A DNA stretch of 64,000 bases from an uncultured Candidatus Saccharibacteria bacterium (GTDB lineage: Bacteria > Patescibacteriota > CALEFQ01), in contig OZ246404.1 in assembly GCA_965230955.1 (NCBI GenBank), positions 920,790-984,789 of the forward strand. Direction: 5' to 3'. A model generated the notes under the pieces. The model searched no databases. It saw nothing but the letters and a program-made list of their open reading frames with translations, and had not been told where the DNA came from. The translations under genes were made by a program, and so were the position numbers. Below are positions 4,120 through 63,106 of this stretch, piece after piece; within the stretch, counting starts at the first letter, position 1; each line of letters opens with the position of its first letter.

Positions 4120-5577
4120 TTATTTTATTTCAATTACTTTTACCAAATTTTCACCCTCGGTTTTATCTTTTTTCACTCCGTCCACAAAAACCACTTTATC
4201 TCCAGGTTTCAGGCGATAGGTGCGGGCCAGACAGGAATGCAAATGCGGAGTCAGTGAATTAATACTGACAATATCCGCCATCACGATCGGATCCACACCC
4301 CAAATCAAATTCAACTGGCGTTGGATTTTTTTATGGGAAGTAACGGCGACAACCGGAATTTCGGCTCGCGCTGAAGAAACCGCTTGGGCGGTCAAACCGG
4401 TCACGGTAGTGACTACTAGCGCCCGCGCCTTGATCTCGCGCGCGACCTGCGCCGAGTGGCGCGCCAAAGAGATCAAGGCTTTGTCCTCGCCCTTGATCGT
4501 CACCGGCCGGAGATCCGCCAAATTATCGTAAACACTTTTTTCCGCGTCTTTAATCACCTGACTGGCCGCGCGCACCGCTTCCACCGGGAATTTTCCCGAA
4601 GCGGTTTCGTCCGACAAGTAAATCGCATCCACGTGGTCAAAAACAGCGTTGGCCACATCGCTGGCCTCGGCTCGCGTCGGGCGCGGTGAAGCCACCATGG
4701 AAAAAAGCATCTGCGTGGCCACGATGACCGGCTTCATCAAAGCCAAAGAAACCGTGGTGATTTTCTTTTGATACTCCGGCACGGCGGTCATGGAAACTTC
4801 TGGACCGAGATCCCCGCGGGCAATCACGATCCCGTCAGAAATCCCGATAATTTCTTCCAGATGATCCAGTGCTTCGTGAGTTTCGATCTTGGCCGTAATT
4901 TTAGTGGCGGGCTTTTTCCCGGCCGAATATTTTTTGATCAGTTCGCGGAGCTCTTCGATATCTTCCGGCGCCCGGACAAAAGATAGTCCGACCCAATCGG
5001 CGTCATTGGCCAAGGCAAATTTGAGATCCTCTTTATCTTTTTCGGTAATGGTCGAGACGGAAATAGTCGTATCGGGGAAATTAAGCCCTTTATGCGAAGT
5101 CAGTTGCCCCCCGGTCATGACCCGACAGACAATATCATAGCCGTGAATGGCCAGCACTTTGACCGCCATTTTACCGTCGGCCAGCAGCAAACGCGCGCCG
5201 GGCTCCACATCACGGTGGAGATTATGATACTGCACAAAAATCTTGTCGGCCGACAAATCACGCGCCGTTTTCTTGGCGTACTTGGGATTAGTGGTAAAAA
5301 CCAGCTCTTTACCCTCTACCAATTTGACTCCCTCTTCCGCAATTTCGCCGACGCGAATTTTCGGACCTTGCAAATCAACTTCAATCCCCAGCGGAATACT
5401 CAATTCCCGGCTGATATCTCGAATCAGCTCGATAATCTGGCGGTGTTCCTCATATTTACCGTGAGCCATATTGAGCCGGACCATATCCATGCCGGCGCGA
5501 GCCATCGCGGTCAGCGTTTTACGATCCCAGCAGGAAGGACCAACTGTACAGACAATCTTAGTTCTGTTCTTTATCAT
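4120..5577 (-). CDS. pyk: pyruvate kinase
   Basis: The N-terminus reads TKIVCTVGPSC...MDMVRLNMAHG, and the canonical pyruvate kinase core motifs run throughout. Confidence 0.9.
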   Translation of the reverse strand: MIKNRTKIVCTVGPSCWDRKTLTAMARAGMDMVRLNMAHGKYEEHRQIIELIRDISRELSIPLGIEVDLQGPKIRVGEIAEEGVKLVEGKELVFTTNPKYAKKTARDLSADKIFVQYHNLHRDVEPGARLLLADGKMAVKVLAIHGYDIVCRVMTGGQLTSHKGLNFPDTTISVSTITEKDKEDLKFALANDADWVGLSFVRAPEDIEELRELIKKYSAGKKPATKITAKIETHEALDHLEEIIGISDGIVIARGDLGPEVSMTAVPEYQKKITTVSLALMKPVIVATQMLFSMVASPRPTRAEASDVANAVFDHVDAIYLSDETASGKFPVEAVRAASQVIKDAEKSVYDNLADLRPVTIKGEDKALISLARHSAQVAREIKARALVVTTVTGLTAQAVSSARAEIPVVAVTSHKKIQRQLNLIWGVDPIVMADIVSINSLTPHLHSCLARTYRLKPGDKVVFVDGVKKDKTEGENLVKVIEIK

Positions 5578-14572: not shown

Positions 14573-14665
14573 TTTATATAGTTTGGCCGCTGGCAAAAAT
14601 CAATTGTCAATTATATGCTACTTCGTGATTTATGGCAAGGGGGACAATTAGTCATTAAAAATTAG

Positions 14666-14733
14666 CCTTTAGTCTTTGGTCTTTGGTCGCGCGATGAATT
14701 TGCTAAAGACTAAAGACCAAAGACTAAAGACCA
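14666..14733. repeat. hairpin repeat of the AGTCTTT/AAAGACC family, between uvrA and the transglycosylase gene
   Basis: The sequence reads CTTTAGTCTTTGGTCTTTGGTC-gcgcgatgaatttgct-AAAGACTAAAGACCAAAGACTAAAGACC. Confidence 0.5.
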
Positions 14734-16163: not shown

Positions 16164-17684
16164 ATGTTCCGCGATTTATCTAAAACCCTCCCCGCTTCTC
16201 CCGGCGTTTATTTATTCAAAAATAAGGTCGGGCGGGTTTTGTATGTGGGCAAAGCGAACAATTTACGGGAGAGAGTGAAGTCATATTTTCAACGGCCGAT
16301 GGAACTGGAACCGCACAAGCAATTGATGATGCCGCAAGTCAAACGAATCGATCACCTGGTGACCGGATCCGAAATCGAAGCCTTGTTGCTGGAAGCGAAT
16401 TTGATCAAAAAAAATCGTCCCAAATACAACATCCTTCTTAAAGACGATAAAAGTTATAAATACATCAAGATCGACTATTCCGTCGATTTTCCAAAAATAT
16501 ATTTTGCCCGTCAGCCACAGCCCAATAAACCGGCGCGGGCATTACGGCACGCGACGGAGCGGCCCCGGGATCTGTATTTCGGCCCTTTTACCGACGGCTA
16601 TGCCGCCAATCAAGCCCTGGAACTTATGCGCCAAGTTTGGCGCTGGCGCTCATGCGATCGTGATATCCCCTATGACGGCTCGAAGCATTATCGCCAGCCC
16701 TGTTTGTATTACCACATCAAACTCTGTTTCGCCCCATGTCTCAATCGAATCAGCCGAACCGAATATGAACGACTGATCCGGGACGCGATCGAATTTTTAA
16801 AAGGCCGAAGCCCGGCGCTGATCCAGAAATTGCAAAGCGAAATGCAAATTCTGTCTCGGCAACACCATTACGAAAAAGCGGCCGTCAAACGCGACCAGAT
16901 TGCCAATCTCAAAAAAATCACCAGCCAGCGCCAAAGCTTGGACGCCCGGACGGAGCAAACCGCCGCGCAATGGATGGCCAAAGAAGCACTCGATTCCCAT
17001 GATGCTTGGCGACAGCTCAAAAAAGTACTCGGACTGAACGATCTGCCGCGGCGACTGGAAGCTTATGATATTTCCAACATTCAAGGCACGGCGCCGACCG
17101 GTTCAATGGTGGTATTTATCGAAGGCAAACCGCGCAGCAGCGAGTATCGCCGATTCGCCATCGTGAGCAAAACAACGCCCGACGACGTCAGCATGATGGG
17201 CGAAATGCTGTCCCGCCGGCTGAGGCACCTCGATAAAAATTGGCCGCGGCCCGACTTGATTATGATTGACGGCGGCAAGCCTCAATTGAATCTCGCGTGC
17301 CGAATTTTGAAAACATTAAAACTATCCATTCCCGTCATCAGTCTCGCCAAAAAAGAGGAAGAAATTTTTATCCCCGGGAAATCCGAGTCATTGAAACTCC
17401 CCCGCCGGCATCCGGCTCGGCTACTACTGGAACAAGTCCGCGACGAAGCGCATCGTTTCGCCATTGGCTACCATATTAATCTGCGCCGGAAAAATTCATT
17501 GCACTCTCCGCTCGATGATATCCCAGGCATCGGCCCCAAAACGAAAAAACTTTTACTGCGGAAATTCGGGACTCTGGCTGCCATCAAAAATGCCAATCCG
17601 AAAATCTTACGGGAACTGATCGGCCCCACCCGCACCAAGATTCTGCTCGAGCAAATACCGCCCGCTGAGATAAGTCAAAAGTAA
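16164..17684 (+). CDS. uvrC: excinuclease ABC subunit C
   Basis: It has a GIY-YIG N-terminus (PGVYLFKN...LYVGKANNLRERV), a UvrBC motif and a C-terminal HhH domain. I placed the start at MFRDLSK because the longer ORF overlaps an upstream hairpin repeat. Confidence 0.9.
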   Translation: MFRDLSKTLPASPGVYLFKNKVGRVLYVGKANNLRERVKSYFQRPMELEPHKQLMMPQVKRIDHLVTGSEIEALLLEANLIKKNRPKYNILLKDDKSYKYIKIDYSVDFPKIYFARQPQPNKPARALRHATERPRDLYFGPFTDGYAANQALELMRQVWRWRSCDRDIPYDGSKHYRQPCLYYHIKLCFAPCLNRISRTEYERLIRDAIEFLKGRSPALIQKLQSEMQILSRQHHYEKAAVKRDQIANLKKITSQRQSLDARTEQTAAQWMAKEALDSHDAWRQLKKVLGLNDLPRRLEAYDISNIQGTAPTGSMVVFIEGKPRSSEYRRFAIVSKTTPDDVSMMGEMLSRRLRHLDKNWPRPDLIMIDGGKPQLNLACRILKTLKLSIPVISLAKKEEEIFIPGKSESLKLPRRHPARLLLEQVRDEAHRFAIGYHINLRRKNSLHSPLDDIPGIGPKTKKLLLRKFGTLAAIKNANPKILRELIGPTRTKILLEQIPPAEISQK

Positions 17685-17687
17685 TAA

Positions 17688-17748
17688 ATCAAAAGTCAAA
17701 AGTTGCGATAATCACACTTTTGACTTTTGACCTTTGACTTTTGACTTA
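17688..17748. repeat. hairpin repeat of the AAAGTCA/TTTGACT tandem-unit family, downstream of uvrC
   Basis: It contains AAAGTCAAAAGT-tgcgataatcac-ACTTTTGACTTT, flanked by extra TTTGAC units. Confidence 0.5.
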
Positions 17749-17976
17749 TTATCAGATGTTACCCAAAAAAGTCGCCGCCAAAATTAAACGCCGGGACAAA
17801 AAAAGAGCTCGCAAAATGATGGTGTCGGGACGCAGTGTCCTCACCCTAAAAAGGCTGATCGATCGAAAGACTGGTGTGTCTAAACCGGCTCTTTAGAATA
17901 ATTGAATCGCCGGTAAGGTAAGTGTTGATTTTCGGCACCAAAATGTTTACAATATAAGCATAATTAAGCTTATTTT

Positions 17977-49761: not shown

Positions 49762-51228
49762 ATGCTTGATTATATGCGCCGGCATTTAAAGAACGCCTTC
49801 ATCCCGCACTCGGGGAATAATCACATTCCTCATGTTTTGCGACGTAAACCGCTGGCTTTTTATAGCCTGCTTTTAATTTCCATCAAAGTACTGGCCATCG
49901 CGGCCGTATTGATGGCTCCCTCCCCCGCTCAGCTGGCTTCGGGAGTGGATGCCAATTTATTGGTTTCCCTGACGAATCAAGAAAGAAGTAGCCGAGGATT
50001 GGATAATCTGAGCACCAATCCGGCATTGATCGCGGCCGCCAAAGCAAAAGCTCAATACATGCTGGACAAAGATATTTTTGAACATGGCGATCCCTGGACA
50101 TTCATTCGCAACGCCGGATACGACTATCTCTATGCCGGCGAAAATATTGCCATGGATTTCCAAACCTCTGACGCCGTGCACAAAGCTTGGATGGCCTCAT
50201 CTTCGCACCGCGCCAATATTTTAAAAACTCAATACGAAGAGATCGGGATCGCGGCCGTGGCCGGCAAATTTCAGGATCATGACACCATCATGGTCGTCCA
50301 AATGTTCGGCTCCCCCAAAGTCAAAGGTTCTACGACAACCACTCCGGTCCCAACCCCTACCCCAAATCTGACCGCCACCCCGACGCCCCCGACACCAACG
50401 GCAACACCGGCAGTGACCACCACCGCGGTAATTACTCCGACCCCGACCGCTGCTCCGGACACAACAGCACCGACAATTCCGACGATAACTTTCCCCACCA
50501 ACACTTCGATACTGTCAGAAGCTTCCGTCATCAAAGGCACAGCCGAATCCGGCAGTGTCATAACGGTTTATGATAACAATATTCCTTTGCAAGAATTGAC
50601 CGCCCTCGACGGAACCTTCACAGTTCAATTGCGCGGCAATCTCAGCGACGGGAAACATACTCTCACGGCCGTCGCCAGAGATTCGGCCGGCAATACCAGC
50701 GCCACAGCAGTACCCGTGACGTTCACGGTCGATACTACCGATCCGGTAATCGACGCCGAGCAGACGACAGCCTTAATCGACCTGGCAAACAATCAAATCG
50801 ATGTCCGGGTCAAAGTAATCGAGCCCAATCTGGCCAGGGTCAGCGCCGGAATCGGCGATCAAATCACCGAACTGACTCCCCTCGACGGGAAATATGCCGG
50901 ATTACTGACCTCGGTCAACATTGATTCGAATGATCCGGCGGTCTTCGTAGAAGCGGTTGATCAGGCCGGACACAAACAGCGCCAGCTGATTACGAATTAT
51001 AATTTTGGCGGCGTCAGTACCGGCAATCAGACGGCCGGCGGACCGCTGGGTGCAACCTTTCTCGGCGGAGTGGCCGATTGGGGCGGATACCTGATTATCG
51101 CTTTTATCATTTTCCTTGTTGTTGCCTTGCTGATTAAAATCTTTGTCCGCGTCCGAATCCAGCATCCGCCGACGATTTTGCATACCTTGGTAGTTTTACT
51201 GCTGGCCGGCGTACTGCTGGTAATATAG
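49762..51228 (+). CDS. secreted CAP (SCP/PR-1, YkwD-like) domain protein with a Thr/Pro-rich linker, Ig-like domains and a C-terminal TM anchor
   Basis: The CAP region contains NQERSSRGL...HGDPWTFIRNAGYDYLYAGENIA...AWMASSSHRANIL. The linker TTTTPVPTPTPNLTATPTPPTPTATPAVTTTAVITPTPTAAPDTTAPTIPT follows, and the C-terminus has a hydrophobic anchor. Confidence 0.6.
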   Translation: MLDYMRRHLKNAFIPHSGNNHIPHVLRRKPLAFYSLLLISIKVLAIAAVLMAPSPAQLASGVDANLLVSLTNQERSSRGLDNLSTNPALIAAAKAKAQYMLDKDIFEHGDPWTFIRNAGYDYLYAGENIAMDFQTSDAVHKAWMASSSHRANILKTQYEEIGIAAVAGKFQDHDTIMVVQMFGSPKVKGSTTTTPVPTPTPNLTATPTPPTPTATPAVTTTAVITPTPTAAPDTTAPTIPTITFPTNTSILSEASVIKGTAESGSVITVYDNNIPLQELTALDGTFTVQLRGNLSDGKHTLTAVARDSAGNTSATAVPVTFTVDTTDPVIDAEQTTALIDLANNQIDVRVKVIEPNLARVSAGIGDQITELTPLDGKYAGLLTSVNIDSNDPAVFVEAVDQAGHKQRQLITNYNFGGVSTGNQTAGGPLGATFLGGVADWGGYLIIAFIIFLVVALLIKIFVRVRIQHPPTILHTLVVLLLAGVLLVI

Positions 51229-51738
51229 AAATCCGAAGCACGAAATCCGAAATTCGAAACAAATAACAAGCAGCAAATTAAAAATACAAGTTATTATCAG
51301 CAAACCCCCGCATCAATTACATGGACAATCCGTGTCCAGCACGTAAATATGATTTGGAAGATCGTTGCTTAGCCTTTTCCAAATCAGTTAGAATGCTAAT
51401 TAAAAAATTACCTTATACTCTGAGCAACCGCGAAGATGGTAAACAGTTATTGCGCTCGTCCGCTTCGGTAGGAGCTAATTATATTGAGGCCAACGAAGCT
51501 CTGGGCAAAAAAGATTTCATTTATCGCATCAGAATTTGCCGCAAGGAAGCAAAAGAAAGCAATTATTGGCTAAACCTGATCGATATCGGTAATCAAGCCG
51601 ATCTGGAACCAATTAGAGGACGTCTCATCCAAGAGTCGGTCGAACTGTTGAAGATCTTTAGCTCTATCATGCGCAAATGCACAGTTTAGGCATTAATATT
51701 TGTAATTTGTTTCGGATTTCGGATTTTGTGCTTCGAAT
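51228..51738. repeat. inverted repeats of ~33 bp (51228-51264 and 51704-51738) bracketing the four-helix-bundle gene
   Basis: The left arm reads GAAATCCGAAGCACGAAATCCGAAATTCGAAACAAAT. The reverse complement of the right arm reads AATTCGAAGCACAAAATCCGAAATCCGAAACAAAT, which is about 85% identical. Confidence 0.55.
51321..51689 (+). CDS. four-helix-bundle protein of the 23S rRNA intervening-sequence protein family
   Basis: It contains YDLEDRCLAFSKSV...LRSSASVGANYIEANEALGKKDFIYRIRICRKEAKESNYWLNL, which matches the TIGR02436-type four-helix-bundle family. Confidence 0.7.
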   Translation: MDNPCPARKYDLEDRCLAFSKSVRMLIKKLPYTLSNREDGKQLLRSSASVGANYIEANEALGKKDFIYRIRICRKEAKESNYWLNLIDIGNQADLEPIRGRLIQESVELLKIFSSIMRKCTV

Positions 51739-51751
51739 TTAATTTATCAAT

Positions 51752-52288
51752 ATGAACAAAAAACTTCTCCTCTGGGAAATCATTGGGATTGTGGTGATAA
51801 TTTTCGCCGGCTCGGCTCTGCATTTTGTGTTTGAGCTAACAGGGCACTTCGCTCCAGTCGCGCTTATCGCCGCCGTCAATGAAAGCACCTGGGAACACCT
51901 CAAACTCGCTTTTTGGCCGATGCTCATCTTTGCCCTGATCGAATACCGCTACGTCAAAGCACTCGCACCCAGCTTTTGGCCGGCCAAAACCGTCTCATTG
52001 TGGTTGACCCCGATTCTCATCGTCGTTTTCTTCTATGGCTACCAGTGGATTACCGGCGCCGACAATCTCATCGCCGATATCACCATTTTTGCCGTAGCAA
52101 TTATCATCGGCCTATTGGTTGGCTTGAAATTGATGACCCGGCCGGCGCCAAAACCGGCTACCAAGATTGCGGCCTGGGTCGGACTGGCGATTATACTGGC
52201 GGCTTTCTGCCTGCTGACTTTTTTCCCGCCCAAGATTTTTTTGTTCCAGGATCCGATCAGCAACGGATATGGAATCATAGAGGAATAA
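51752..52288 (+). CDS. hypothetical integral membrane protein (5-6 TM helices)
   Basis: It has hydrophobic segments throughout and a hairpin terminator downstream. Confidence 0.4.
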   Translation: MNKKLLLWEIIGIVVIIFAGSALHFVFELTGHFAPVALIAAVNESTWEHLKLAFWPMLIFALIEYRYVKALAPSFWPAKTVSLWLTPILIVVFFYGYQWITGADNLIADITIFAVAIIIGLLVGLKLMTRPAPKPATKIAAWVGLAIILAAFCLLTFFPPKIFLFQDPISNGYGIIEE

Positions 52289-58722: not shown

Positions 58723-58745
58723 ATATTTTCAGATAACATGGAGTC

Positions 58746-58829
58746 AGGTAACAAGTAACAGGTACCAAGGAACAAATAGGAATAATTTTTTCCTTTTTGT
58801 TACTTGTTACTTGTTACCTGTTACTTGTT
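58746..58829. repeat. intra-operon imperfect hairpin (~30-bp arms) built from GTAACAA/GTAACAG units
   Basis: The left arm is AGGTAACAAGTAACAGGTACCAAGGAACAAA and the right arm is TTTGTTACTTGTTACTTGTTACCTGTTACTTGTT. The left arm matches the repeat at 16126-16155 (reverse complement) with one mismatch in 30 nt. Confidence 0.5.
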
Positions 58830-61766: not shown

Positions 61767-62987
61767 TTATTGAACCGTACTGATGACGGAATAAATCGGA
61801 GTAATAATGGATAGCGCCAAGATACCGATGCCGGCGCCGACCACCAGCATCAAGATCGGCTCGATCAACGAGGAAAGAGATTTGAGCTCGGTCACAACTT
61901 GATTGCTATATAATTCCGCCAGCCGGTCGAGAATAACGGTCACTTCACCGGTTCGCTCCCCCACTCGCACCATCCCGATGACCGTGGGCGGAAAAAGGTT
62001 TTTCTCCGCTTCCATCGATTCGGTCAGCGCCACACCCTTGGTCACCCGCTCGGCCACGCGCTTCAGCGCGTTGCCGTACAAACGATCCTTCATCGTATCG
62101 CCCGTCACGGTGATCGCTTCCACGATCGGCATGCCGCTTTTTACCAAATTGGCCAGCGTGCCGGAAAAAGCCGCCATGGCGATTTTTTCTTTGACTTGGT
62201 GAATCAGCGGCCAGCGACTCCAAAAAACGCTGCTCGATGTTTTCACCGACGGAAAACGATTGAGCCACCAAATAAAGACAATCAACCCGACCAGTACAAG
62301 CAGAATCAGCCACCAAAAATTGACGATGAAATCGCTGGTCGCCAGCAATAATCTGGTTGTACCCGGCAATTCCGCGCCGTTTTGCTGTAAAACATCGGCA
62401 ATTTTCGGCACGACAAAAATCATCAGTGCAAAACCGACGCCGATCATGGCGCAAACAATGACAATGGGATAAAGCAGTGCGCCGCGGACCTGGCTGGTCA
62501 ACTCGTAACGACGCCTCAACTCCGAAGCCAAATAGCGCAGATTCTTTTCCAAAATTCCGCTGACCTCGCCGGCACGTACCACTTGGATAAAAACTCGGTC
62601 GAAAACTTCCGGGTGTTTGGAAAAAGACGCCGAGAGCGGAATGCCCGAAGCCACATCCTTGCCGGCATCACGCAATATCTGGCGCAATTTGGCGCTGCGA
62701 AATTGATCGCTGACTATCTGCAAAGCTTCCACCAGCGGCAGACCGGCTTTTAGCATGGCCGCCAATTGCTCCACCAAAAGAGTTTTGTTCAGCAAAGAAA
62801 CCTGGCCGATTTCCATCGACCATAAGCTGCTGCGCCGACCTTCTTTTTCTTCCATCCGCGCGATGAAAAAACCCTGGGACTGCAATTGCTGAACCGCCGT
62901 CGTTTTATCGGCCGCGATTATTTTTCCTTTTTGGGTCTCCCCGTGTTTGGAGAGCACCTCGTATTCAAATTCCGGCATATAATCCAA
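61767..62987 (-). CDS. pilC: type IV pilus assembly protein PilC (GspF family platform protein)
   Basis: It has the duplicated GspF domain architecture with three TM helices, and it contains LLYPIVIVCAMIGVGF and GMPIVEAITV. Confidence 0.85.
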   Translation of the reverse strand: MDYMPEFEYEVLSKHGETQKGKIIAADKTTAVQQLQSQGFFIARMEEKEGRRSSLWSMEIGQVSLLNKTLLVEQLAAMLKAGLPLVEALQIVSDQFRSAKLRQILRDAGKDVASGIPLSASFSKHPEVFDRVFIQVVRAGEVSGILEKNLRYLASELRRRYELTSQVRGALLYPIVIVCAMIGVGFALMIFVVPKIADVLQQNGAELPGTTRLLLATSDFIVNFWWLILLVLVGLIVFIWWLNRFPSVKTSSSVFWSRWPLIHQVKEKIAMAAFSGTLANLVKSGMPIVEAITVTGDTMKDRLYGNALKRVAERVTKGVALTESMEAEKNLFPPTVIGMVRVGERTGEVTVILDRLAELYSNQVVTELKSLSSLIEPILMLVVGAGIGILALSIITPIYSVISTVQ

Positions 62988-62989
62988 GA

Positions 62990-63060
62990 TTTAAGATGTA
63001 AGATATAAGATGTAAGAAAATAAGAAAAAATTCTTCTTAAATCTTATATCTTAATTCTTA
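62990..63060. repeat. inverted repeat of TAAGAT units in the pilB-pilC intergenic spacer
   Basis: AAGATTTAAGATGTAAGATATAAGATGTAAGAA faces TTCTTCTTAAATCTTATATCTTAATTCTTATATCTT. Confidence 0.5.
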
Positions 63061-63106
63061 TATCTTCTCCCTGGGCTCACGGGTAAAACATAGTGTCAGC
63101 TCCTGC

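Follow-up and report, generated by a model that had tools for sequence, protein, structure and literature searches.

Why does a gene of the four-helix-bundle family associated with intervening sequences (IVSs) of 23S rRNA lie between two protein-coding genes, enclosed by a pair of facing repeats? This question is raised by one locus in a 64-kb stretch of DNA from an uncultured Candidatus Saccharibacteria bacterium (contig OZ246404.1), hereafter termed the window, to which all coordinates without a locus prefix refer. On balance, and by a modest measure, we consider it probable that the locus is an IVS-type foldback cassette that lacks its own promoter, is co-transcribed with the host operon, and forms a stem cut by RNase III. 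The features of the locus are as follows.

49762-51228, + strand: upstream host gene, encoding a CAP/YkwD domain, bacterial Ig-like (Big) domains and a C-terminal membrane anchor
51229-51269, + strand: left (5') arm, AAATCCG AAGCACG AAATCCG AAATTCG AAACAAA, then TAACAA
51270-51320, + strand: inner spacer or 5' leader, from the left arm to the start codon
51321-51689, + strand: four-helix-bundle gene, 122 aa, S23p/23S_rRNA_IVP/Avd-like (PF05635 and TIGR02436)
51690-51699, + strand: short spacer, from the stop codon to the right arm
51700-51740, + strand: right (3') arm, on the other strand AAATTCG AAGCACA AAATCCG AAATCCG AAACAAA
51752-52288, + strand: downstream host gene, encoding a DUF6512 membrane protein, in the same orientation as the cassette

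The cassette (51229-51740) spans approximately 512 bp, and all three genes lie on the + strand. Its left arm begins at the first base past the TAG stop codon of the CAP/Big-domain gene, while 11 nt separate the end of its right arm from the ATG of the DUF6512 gene. An earlier note on this DNA had described inverted repeats of ~33 bp with ~85% complementarity (51228-51264 and 51704-51738). These repeats are real and longer than claimed, at 41 nt each with 90% complementarity; 37 of the 41 positions form Watson-Crick pairs, or 39 as RNA when two G·U pairs are counted. Each arm consists of five tandem heptads of the AAATYCG type. Folding of the RNA from 51215 to 51755 gave a single continuous terminal stem that encloses the whole gene (minimum free energy, -151 kcal/mol; z-score, -6.6, equalled by 0 of 100 shuffles), as the note had anticipated. 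The stem is AT-rich, with 41 bp and 430 nt enclosed. Moreover, a 22-nt core of the arms occurs only twice in the 64-kb window, both times in the cassette (0 expected from 100 shuffles); thus, in sequence the arms do not duplicate any other repeat of the window. The suspicion that they might be mere copies of common hairpin families without mutual complementarity is not borne out; in architecture, however, they share a class with at least four other intergenic hairpins in the window.

The gene stands outside any rRNA gene, as originally stated: protein-coding genes lie on both sides, and Rfam and ARAGORN detected no rRNA gene in the window. The promoter scan gave no sigma-70-like promoter on the + strand within the cassette, and the leader (51270-51320) contains no recognisable Shine-Dalgarno sequence. 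A terminator scan gave neither a terminator-like site nor a U-tract at either arm, so the arms do not have the make-up of intrinsic terminators. The GC content at third codon positions is 0.42 for the cassette gene versus 0.58-0.64 for its neighbours, which marks the cassette as compositionally foreign; together with its presence or absence among the relatives described below, this fits a unit of transfer. The neighbours in the window encode PMT_2, CAP, DUF6512, two small open reading frames (ORFs) and a PilM-type protein, and among them we found no repeat pair besides the arms.

The 122-aa protein scores 44 bits with PF05635 (23S_rRNA_IVP; cut-off, 33.8; E-value 2.8e-11) and 66.1 bits with TIGR02436 (four helix bundle protein; cut-off, 24; E-value 2.8e-18). 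These matches, both above curated cut-offs, and the predicted fold agree with its earlier assignment to the IVS four-helix-bundle family. The AlphaFold2 model, built with 30 homologues, has a pLDDT of 91.6 and contains helices at residues 13-29, 34-58, 63-86 and 93-121. The best Foldseek matches are the S23p-family structures 2RLD (E-value 2.6e-5, TM-score 0.72-0.81) and 2GSC (TM-score 0.71-0.77), followed by Avd of the Bordetella phage diversity-generating retroelement (DGR; 4DWL) and Avd in the DGR ribonucleoprotein (8UB7). Based on this model, the protein is predicted to adopt the up-down four-helix-bundle fold of 2RLD and 2GSC. The entries 2RLD, 2GSC and 4DWL each contain five chains (A-E), and S23p-family homologues have been described as pentamers (PMC4990558). 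The protein is basic, with a pI of 9.25. The ratio of nonsynonymous to synonymous divergence (dN/dS) of its gene is 0.06-0.13; by this measure, the protein is under purifying selection and functional. PADLOC and PHROGs, which hold defence-system and phage profiles, gave no match.

The protein has thousands of relatives, with 6,163 representatives of 50%-identity clusters obtained from one single-sequence search, and we compared the closest 80 genomic loci from species-representative genomes, of which 77 are non-redundant. Their proteins are 55-67% identical to the query. They come from more than ten phyla, among them Patescibacteria, Planctomycetota, Desulfobacterota, Bacteroidota, Verrucomicrobiota, Gammaproteobacteria and Chlorobi, and further groups include Omnitrophota, Zixibacteria and Brocadia. 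Facing arms surround the gene in 67 of the 77 non-redundant loci, and one arm is kept in most of the other loci inspected. These arms are likewise chains of heptads; five units are commonest (right arm, 45 of 80 loci), compared with one or two in control regions of the same loci. The unit ends in CG in most loci, is of the AAATCCT type in 11 and of the AAATCAC type in eight, and both arms of a locus carry the same type. In approximately half of the loci, the arms align to those of the window at 81-86% identity; the coding sequences share 62% nucleotide identity.

Arm pairing has been kept through sequence change. In a register-fixed alignment of 39 cassettes, 84% of the cells are paired, against 78.4 +/- 0.6% in shuffles, and 0 of 500 shuffles reached 84%. 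Moreover, 19 of the 34 pairs show changes on both sides, while controls in which the arms were slid against each other pair at 21-55%. At one locus (L054:3001-3715; loci from our searches carry L numbers), two four-helix-bundle genes stand in tandem, the second ~120 nt past the first, with heptad arms on each, as stacked cassettes.

None of these 80 homologue loci lies in rRNA, as judged by scans for conserved 23S and 16S motifs and by Rfam. The same holds for the loci found through their arms, described below (0 of 130 among the matches listed; motif scans, Rfam). For this subfamily, the statement in the earlier note that the family is typically encoded within IVSs of 23S rRNA thus fails. Its companion idea, that the locus re-creates the IVS stem-loop outside rRNA, holds in that the arms close a continuous stem; what does not stand is the notion of a single event, since the cassette is a member of a hairpin family spread over many phyla.

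The placement of the cassettes relative to their neighbours is strongly biased. In the 67 loci where both arms are present, the closest ORF upstream runs in the same direction as the cassette gene in 58 and in the opposite direction in five. The left arm follows the stop codon of that ORF at a median distance of 5 nt, and the next co-oriented start codon lies a median of 16 nt past the right arm. The co-orientation and the tight gaps to stop and start codons show that the cassette sits in operon spacers in sense orientation. Collectively, this arrangement indicates, at the level of sequence, that the cassette would be co-transcribed with its host operon. Similarly, S23p ORFs lie in the sense orientation of the pre-rRNA (PMC4990558). 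A comparable gene order is also found in Flavobacterium columnare 94-081 (175781-177372), where a 366-nt four-helix-bundle gene (AWN65_RS00820) lies between the housekeeping genes gmk and nadD with spacers of ~35 nt (PMC5524665). This locus is a candidate experimental system in a cultured bacterium; the likeness concerns the arrangement of the genes.

The following mechanism would account for these observations. Read-through from the host operon would transcribe the cassette, and in the transcript the two arms would pair into an RNA stem of ~41-45 bp. A read-through transcript with a stem of ~41 bp offers RNase III a canonical substrate. The enzyme would probably cut the stem, as its length and the precedents discussed below suggest, and cleavage would free the four-helix-bundle mRNA and separate the two host messages. 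Because the stem would be removed in this way, the same design could be accommodated in rRNA helices as well as in narrow operon spacers. In addition, the arm sequence is conserved beyond what pairing needs, which argues that some factor reads the arms specifically. The most economical candidate for this factor is the encoded basic, Avd-like protein, since RNA stem-loops of the DGR complex are held by Avd; that the cassette protein binds the arms is a speculative proposal drawn from this analogy.

Conservation of the arms was also evident at the same site in close relatives. Orthologous sites were retrieved through the downstream DUF6512 protein, and the DNA was then read. The spacer between the CAP and DUF6512 genes is occupied as follows, with the identity of DUF6512 to that of the window in brackets.

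Window, L002 and L088 (88% for L088): cassette; the L088 copy lies at 422-940
L083-L085 (80%): 180-aa ORF with no Pfam match and no arms; L084:2454-2996
L086, L087 and L089 (80-83%): gene of 186-187 aa encoding Y1_Tnp, like a transposase associated with repetitive extragenic palindromes (REP; RAYT-like), between GC-rich REP-like hairpins (GGGTGTCAGGCTCTCAGCCTGACCCC...); L086:2199-3000 and L089:1467-2306
L091 (81%), 1529-1600: 72-nt spacer that is a bare hairpin of GTAAAAA/GTGAAAT heptads
L092 (80%), 1591-1697: two-heptad remnant AAAATTC TAAATTT, then two REP-like GC hairpins

Whether or not they carry the cassette, the relatives have the same CAP gene upstream, and every element in this spacer begins right at the upstream stop codon. 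Given these differing occupants, the site is a hot spot in which hairpin elements of unrelated kinds occur, and the cassette is an insertion polymorphism; the comparison of synteny proposed earlier thus found both presence and absence of the cassette. The spacer of L084 contains a possible two-heptad remnant, AAATTTC TAAATCC, directly past the upstream stop codon. In L086, an RNase III gene with Ribonuclease_3 and dsrm domains (4146-4892, - strand) lies two genes downstream of the site.

Where the cassette is present, its parts have diverged at different rates. Compared with L002, the window shows identities of 73-79% in the flanking genes, where synonymous divergence (dS) is ~1.5-1.7, of 78% in the four-helix-bundle coding sequence, and of 93% and 95% in the two arms. 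Compared with L088, identity is 84-86% in the flanking genes and 92-95% in the cassette, and dS is 0.22 for the cassette versus 0.83 for the flanks. Taken over both relatives, the left arm matches that of the window at 93-95%, the right arm at 95%, and the spacer 51270-51320 at 81-92%. Judged from this divergence, the arms are the slowest-evolving part of the locus and functional. Two readings would fit the higher similarity of the cassette between the window and L088: the cassette RNA may be constrained, or the lineages may have exchanged the cassette more recently.

The arms also occur without the gene. An exact-pattern scan with CGAAATYCGAAATYCGAAACAA returned 10 loci on viral contigs and at least 120 metagenome loci, and the matches listed contain 137 arm instances. 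Cargo-less hairpins account for 86 of these, with the partner arm 39-276 nt away (median, 80); 39 have no strong partner arm, nine have a partner more than 300 nt away, and three lie at a contig edge. The empty hairpins are ~150 nt long, and the 10 matches on viral contigs are mostly of this kind. A four-helix-bundle gene or fragment lies beside the arm in L164, L171, L176, L178, L210 and L221, which belong to the classes with a distant partner or no strong partner. In every gene-bearing cassette among the matches listed, the cargo is the four-helix-bundle gene; apparent other cargo in L098, L133 and L165 was rejected, as these are host genes between two separate hairpins. In particular, the distal stem of cargo-less hairpins and the inner arm segment of cassettes with a gene are homologous (L121 compared with L011); the two forms make up a single element family with the gene at its apex.

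Among the matches listed, the empty AAATYCG hairpins lie at gene 3' ends, 30 of them in co-directional, 19 in convergent and two in divergent spacers. The family is dispersed: contigs already holding one element contained 13 further elements in 640 kb, and while the window has one AAATYCG-type copy, the family extends across more than 200 loci. One empty hairpin of this type, on an IMG/VR contig (L101:122-236), lies within a tRNA array (tRNAs at 5-78, 241-309, 317-390, 407-478 and onward); this position in a stable-RNA operon is reminiscent of IVSs in rRNA operons. Rfam contains no family for the cassette or the empty hairpins and gave only sub-threshold matches to eukaryotic miRNA precursors, and among the papers searched, by motif string and by protein family, none contains the motif or describes a non-rRNA cassette. 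The family of heptad-arm hairpins is thus apparently large and undescribed. Furthermore, the gene calls in the databases are N-terminally extended at several loci (P0024, 151 aa; P0062, 137 aa; L178; L171), because the ORF runs through the left arm and the heptads are translated as repeats such as RNPKSEI. Heptad hairpins can therefore mislead gene callers.

Other heptad hairpins, built of unrelated units, are present in the window, which also holds one structured RNA gene.

14651-14731: intergenic hairpin, unit AAAGACY, approximately five heptads per arm, cargo-less
17670-17749: intergenic hairpin, unit CAAAAGT, approximately five heptads per arm, cargo-less
58745-58829: intergenic hairpin, unit GTAACAR, approximately five heptads per arm, cargo-less
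62986-63066: intergenic hairpin, unit TAAGATN, approximately five heptads per arm, cargo-less
628-715, - strand: tRNA-Ser (GGA), the sole structured RNA gene detected in the window (Rfam/ARAGORN)

The four hairpins differ in placement: three follow directly on a stop codon in co-directional spacers, and the spacer of the fourth is divergent. We had considered that five heptads might match the five subunits of a pentamer; this idea was down-weighted in view of these gene-less five-heptad hairpins in the same window. In the account of Mrazek et al. (2007) given in PMC4679880, heptanucleotide repeats are the most abundant long simple-sequence repeats in prokaryotes and possibly arise by polymerase slippage.

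The known kinds of element involved here are the IVS, the hairpin elements resembling MITEs (MITE, miniature inverted-repeat transposable element), and the S23p/Avd-like protein family. As reported, S23p IVSs are excised from 23S rRNA by RNase III, and their patchy distribution suggests horizontal transfer (PMC4990558, PMC11270868). The S23p IVS of Coxiella has a 28-bp stem of terminal inverted repeats, with RNase III cuts mapped inside it and tandem heptamers at its 5' side (PMC4990558). With such IVSs (Leptospira, Coxiella burnetii, Xanthomonas, Brucella, and some 16S and 23S insertions of the Candidate Phyla Radiation, CPR), the cassette shares the PF05635 family, the sense ORF, the closing stem and the patchy distribution suggestive of horizontal transfer. 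The heptamers in the 5' part of the Coxiella stem are a further likeness, although the unit there is GACAGAT and that of the window cassette is AAATYCG. However, 23S IVSs reside in helix 25 or 45 of the rRNA, whereas the host of the window cassette is an operon spacer in mRNA, so that an insertion in rRNA is lacking here. The Coxiella ORF is decaying and probably not expressed (PMC4990558), in contrast to the window protein with its signature of purifying selection. RNase III processing is established for S23p IVSs, whereas for the window cassette it is proposed by analogy.

Stem-forming hairpins in mRNA offer a second comparison. RNase III cleaves the Correia MITE hairpins present in mRNAs (PMC10969869). 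Like the Correia elements (CREE) of Neisseria and the ERIC MITEs, the cassette has terminal inverted repeats (TIRs) that would form a stem in host transcripts, occupies intergenic or intra-operon sites, and belongs to a dispersed multi-copy family with gene-bearing and empty forms. Unlike MITEs, it has arms composed of 7-nt units in tandem, shows no visible target duplication (TA or other), and belongs to a family that spans many phyla rather than one genus. Moreover, MITEs are non-coding and derived from a transposase element, whereas the cassette encodes a four-helix bundle of ~120 aa as its sole internal gene; we know of no parent insertion sequence with a transposase for the cassette family. 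The REP/RAYT system resembles it in having small hairpin repeats at gene 3' ends, and a RAYT-like element occurs at the same site in relatives; its GC-rich hairpins are unrelated, however, and it uses an HUH transposase, while the cassette arms pair with each other across the gene. TAACTGA heptanucleotide arrays in Beggiatoaceae, Cyanobacteria and Bacteroidetes are intergenic, lie near start and stop codons, have a patchy distribution across phyla, and are suspected of post-transcriptional roles (PMC4679880). Those arrays are direct, whereas in the cassette family two arrays are inverted relative to each other and often enclose a gene. Finally, Avd is a basic pentamer that, within the DGR ribonucleoprotein, grips the RNA stem-loops on the flanks of the template (bioRxiv 10.1101/2023.10.23.563531). 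The cassette protein resembles it in its four-helix-bundle fold and superfamily and its basic character, and homologues crystallise as pentamers; however, sequence identity is ~10%, and the window gene is accompanied by neither a reverse transcriptase nor template and variable repeats.

Several observations weigh against a co-transcribed cassette processed by RNase III. Cutting of the stem is argued from its length and from related systems, and tblastn found no homologue of rnc in the 64-kb window. The arms of the window, L002 and L088 differ from each other at two to four positions per arm, and these differences are not compensatory. In many of the 39 aligned cassettes, the centre of heptads 2-3 is unpaired. 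Mismatches between the arms are compatible with G·U pairing as often on the sense strand as on the antisense strand (76 versus 71, p = 0.74); selection for pairing in the sense RNA is therefore not detectable, and a DNA-level role or separate recognition of the arms fits equally well. The type of arm, defined by heptad position 7 (G, T or C), is linked only weakly to protein similarity (0.646 within types, 0.636 between types, p ~0.07). In addition, the window hairpins with five heptads, unrelated units and no gene indicate that the five-times-seven layout is a property of the class and is not tied to the gene.

The same balance of pairing on the two strands would agree with the cassette being a DNA-level foldback transposon or MITE, with the arms as TIRs for a transposase or recombinase supplied in trans, the gene as cargo or accessory, the empty hairpins as non-autonomous copies, and the RNA stem as a side effect. 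This alternative would also explain why the order of heptads in each arm is conserved across phyla beyond the needs of complementarity, and it agrees with the dispersal of the family, the foreign composition of the cassette, and the polymorphic site that RAYT/REP elements occupy as well. However, no transposase or recombinase gene was linked to the element among the ~200 loci inspected. Similarly, the junctions of the cassettes in the window, L002 and L088 and those of the empty hairpins show no direct repeat that would mark a target-site duplication, although the exact ends of the element are not defined, because no clean empty site was recovered. A search of viral contigs for relatives of the gene found none and thus no candidate vector there, and the 58:5 co-orientation and the placement at stop codons would be unexpected for an element that expresses itself. 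We therefore consider a purely DNA-level element rather unlikely, while recognising it as a serious competitor. DNA-level and RNA-level roles are not mutually exclusive. Correia elements act at both levels.

The hairpin might instead serve the host as an operon processing site, a stabiliser or a terminator-like structure of a heptad class common in the genome, with the gene a passenger in its loop. The other five-heptad intergenic hairpins of the window, at least four in number and three of them between co-directional genes, could be read in this way, as could the empty AAATYCG hairpins at gene 3' ends and the bare heptad hairpin at the orthologous site of L091. Such a role appears improbable, since the AAATYCG arms accompany the gene across more than ten phyla, unlike the other heptad units of the window, and a single gene family fills all gene-bearing cassettes among the matches listed; moreover, no U-tract follows the arm, and close relatives lack the cassette. 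An orphan or remnant Avd of a DGR would suit the fold and the family relationship, and CPR (Patescibacteria) genomes are rich in DGRs. The context excludes such a remnant for all practical purposes, because no reverse-transcriptase-sized ORF and no template or variable repeat lies within several kilobases, and the homologous loci are alike in holding the gene alone between unrelated housekeeping genes.

A broader proposal goes beyond this reading, and we put it forward as a conjecture that is probably too wide as it stands. In this proposal, S23p/Avd-like proteins would be the element-encoded factor of an unrecognised foldback family spanning many phyla, of which gene-bearing cassettes, empty hairpins and ORF-containing rRNA IVSs would be three forms. 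The protein would recognise the arms, much as Avd grips stem-loops of DGR RNA, and would either govern cutting by RNase III or bring about spread through an as yet undescribed mechanism. If true, the proposal would unite operon cassettes, intergenic hairpins and classical rRNA IVSs as one element.

The S23p/IVS family has had solved structures since 2006-2007, yet no known function outside DGRs. The present comparison places the usual home of the gene in a conserved heptad-repeat hairpin within ordinary operons, and it flags a large class of unannotated intergenic hairpins that are absent from Rfam. What S23p proteins do and how rRNA IVSs arose may thereby become questions for direct experiment.

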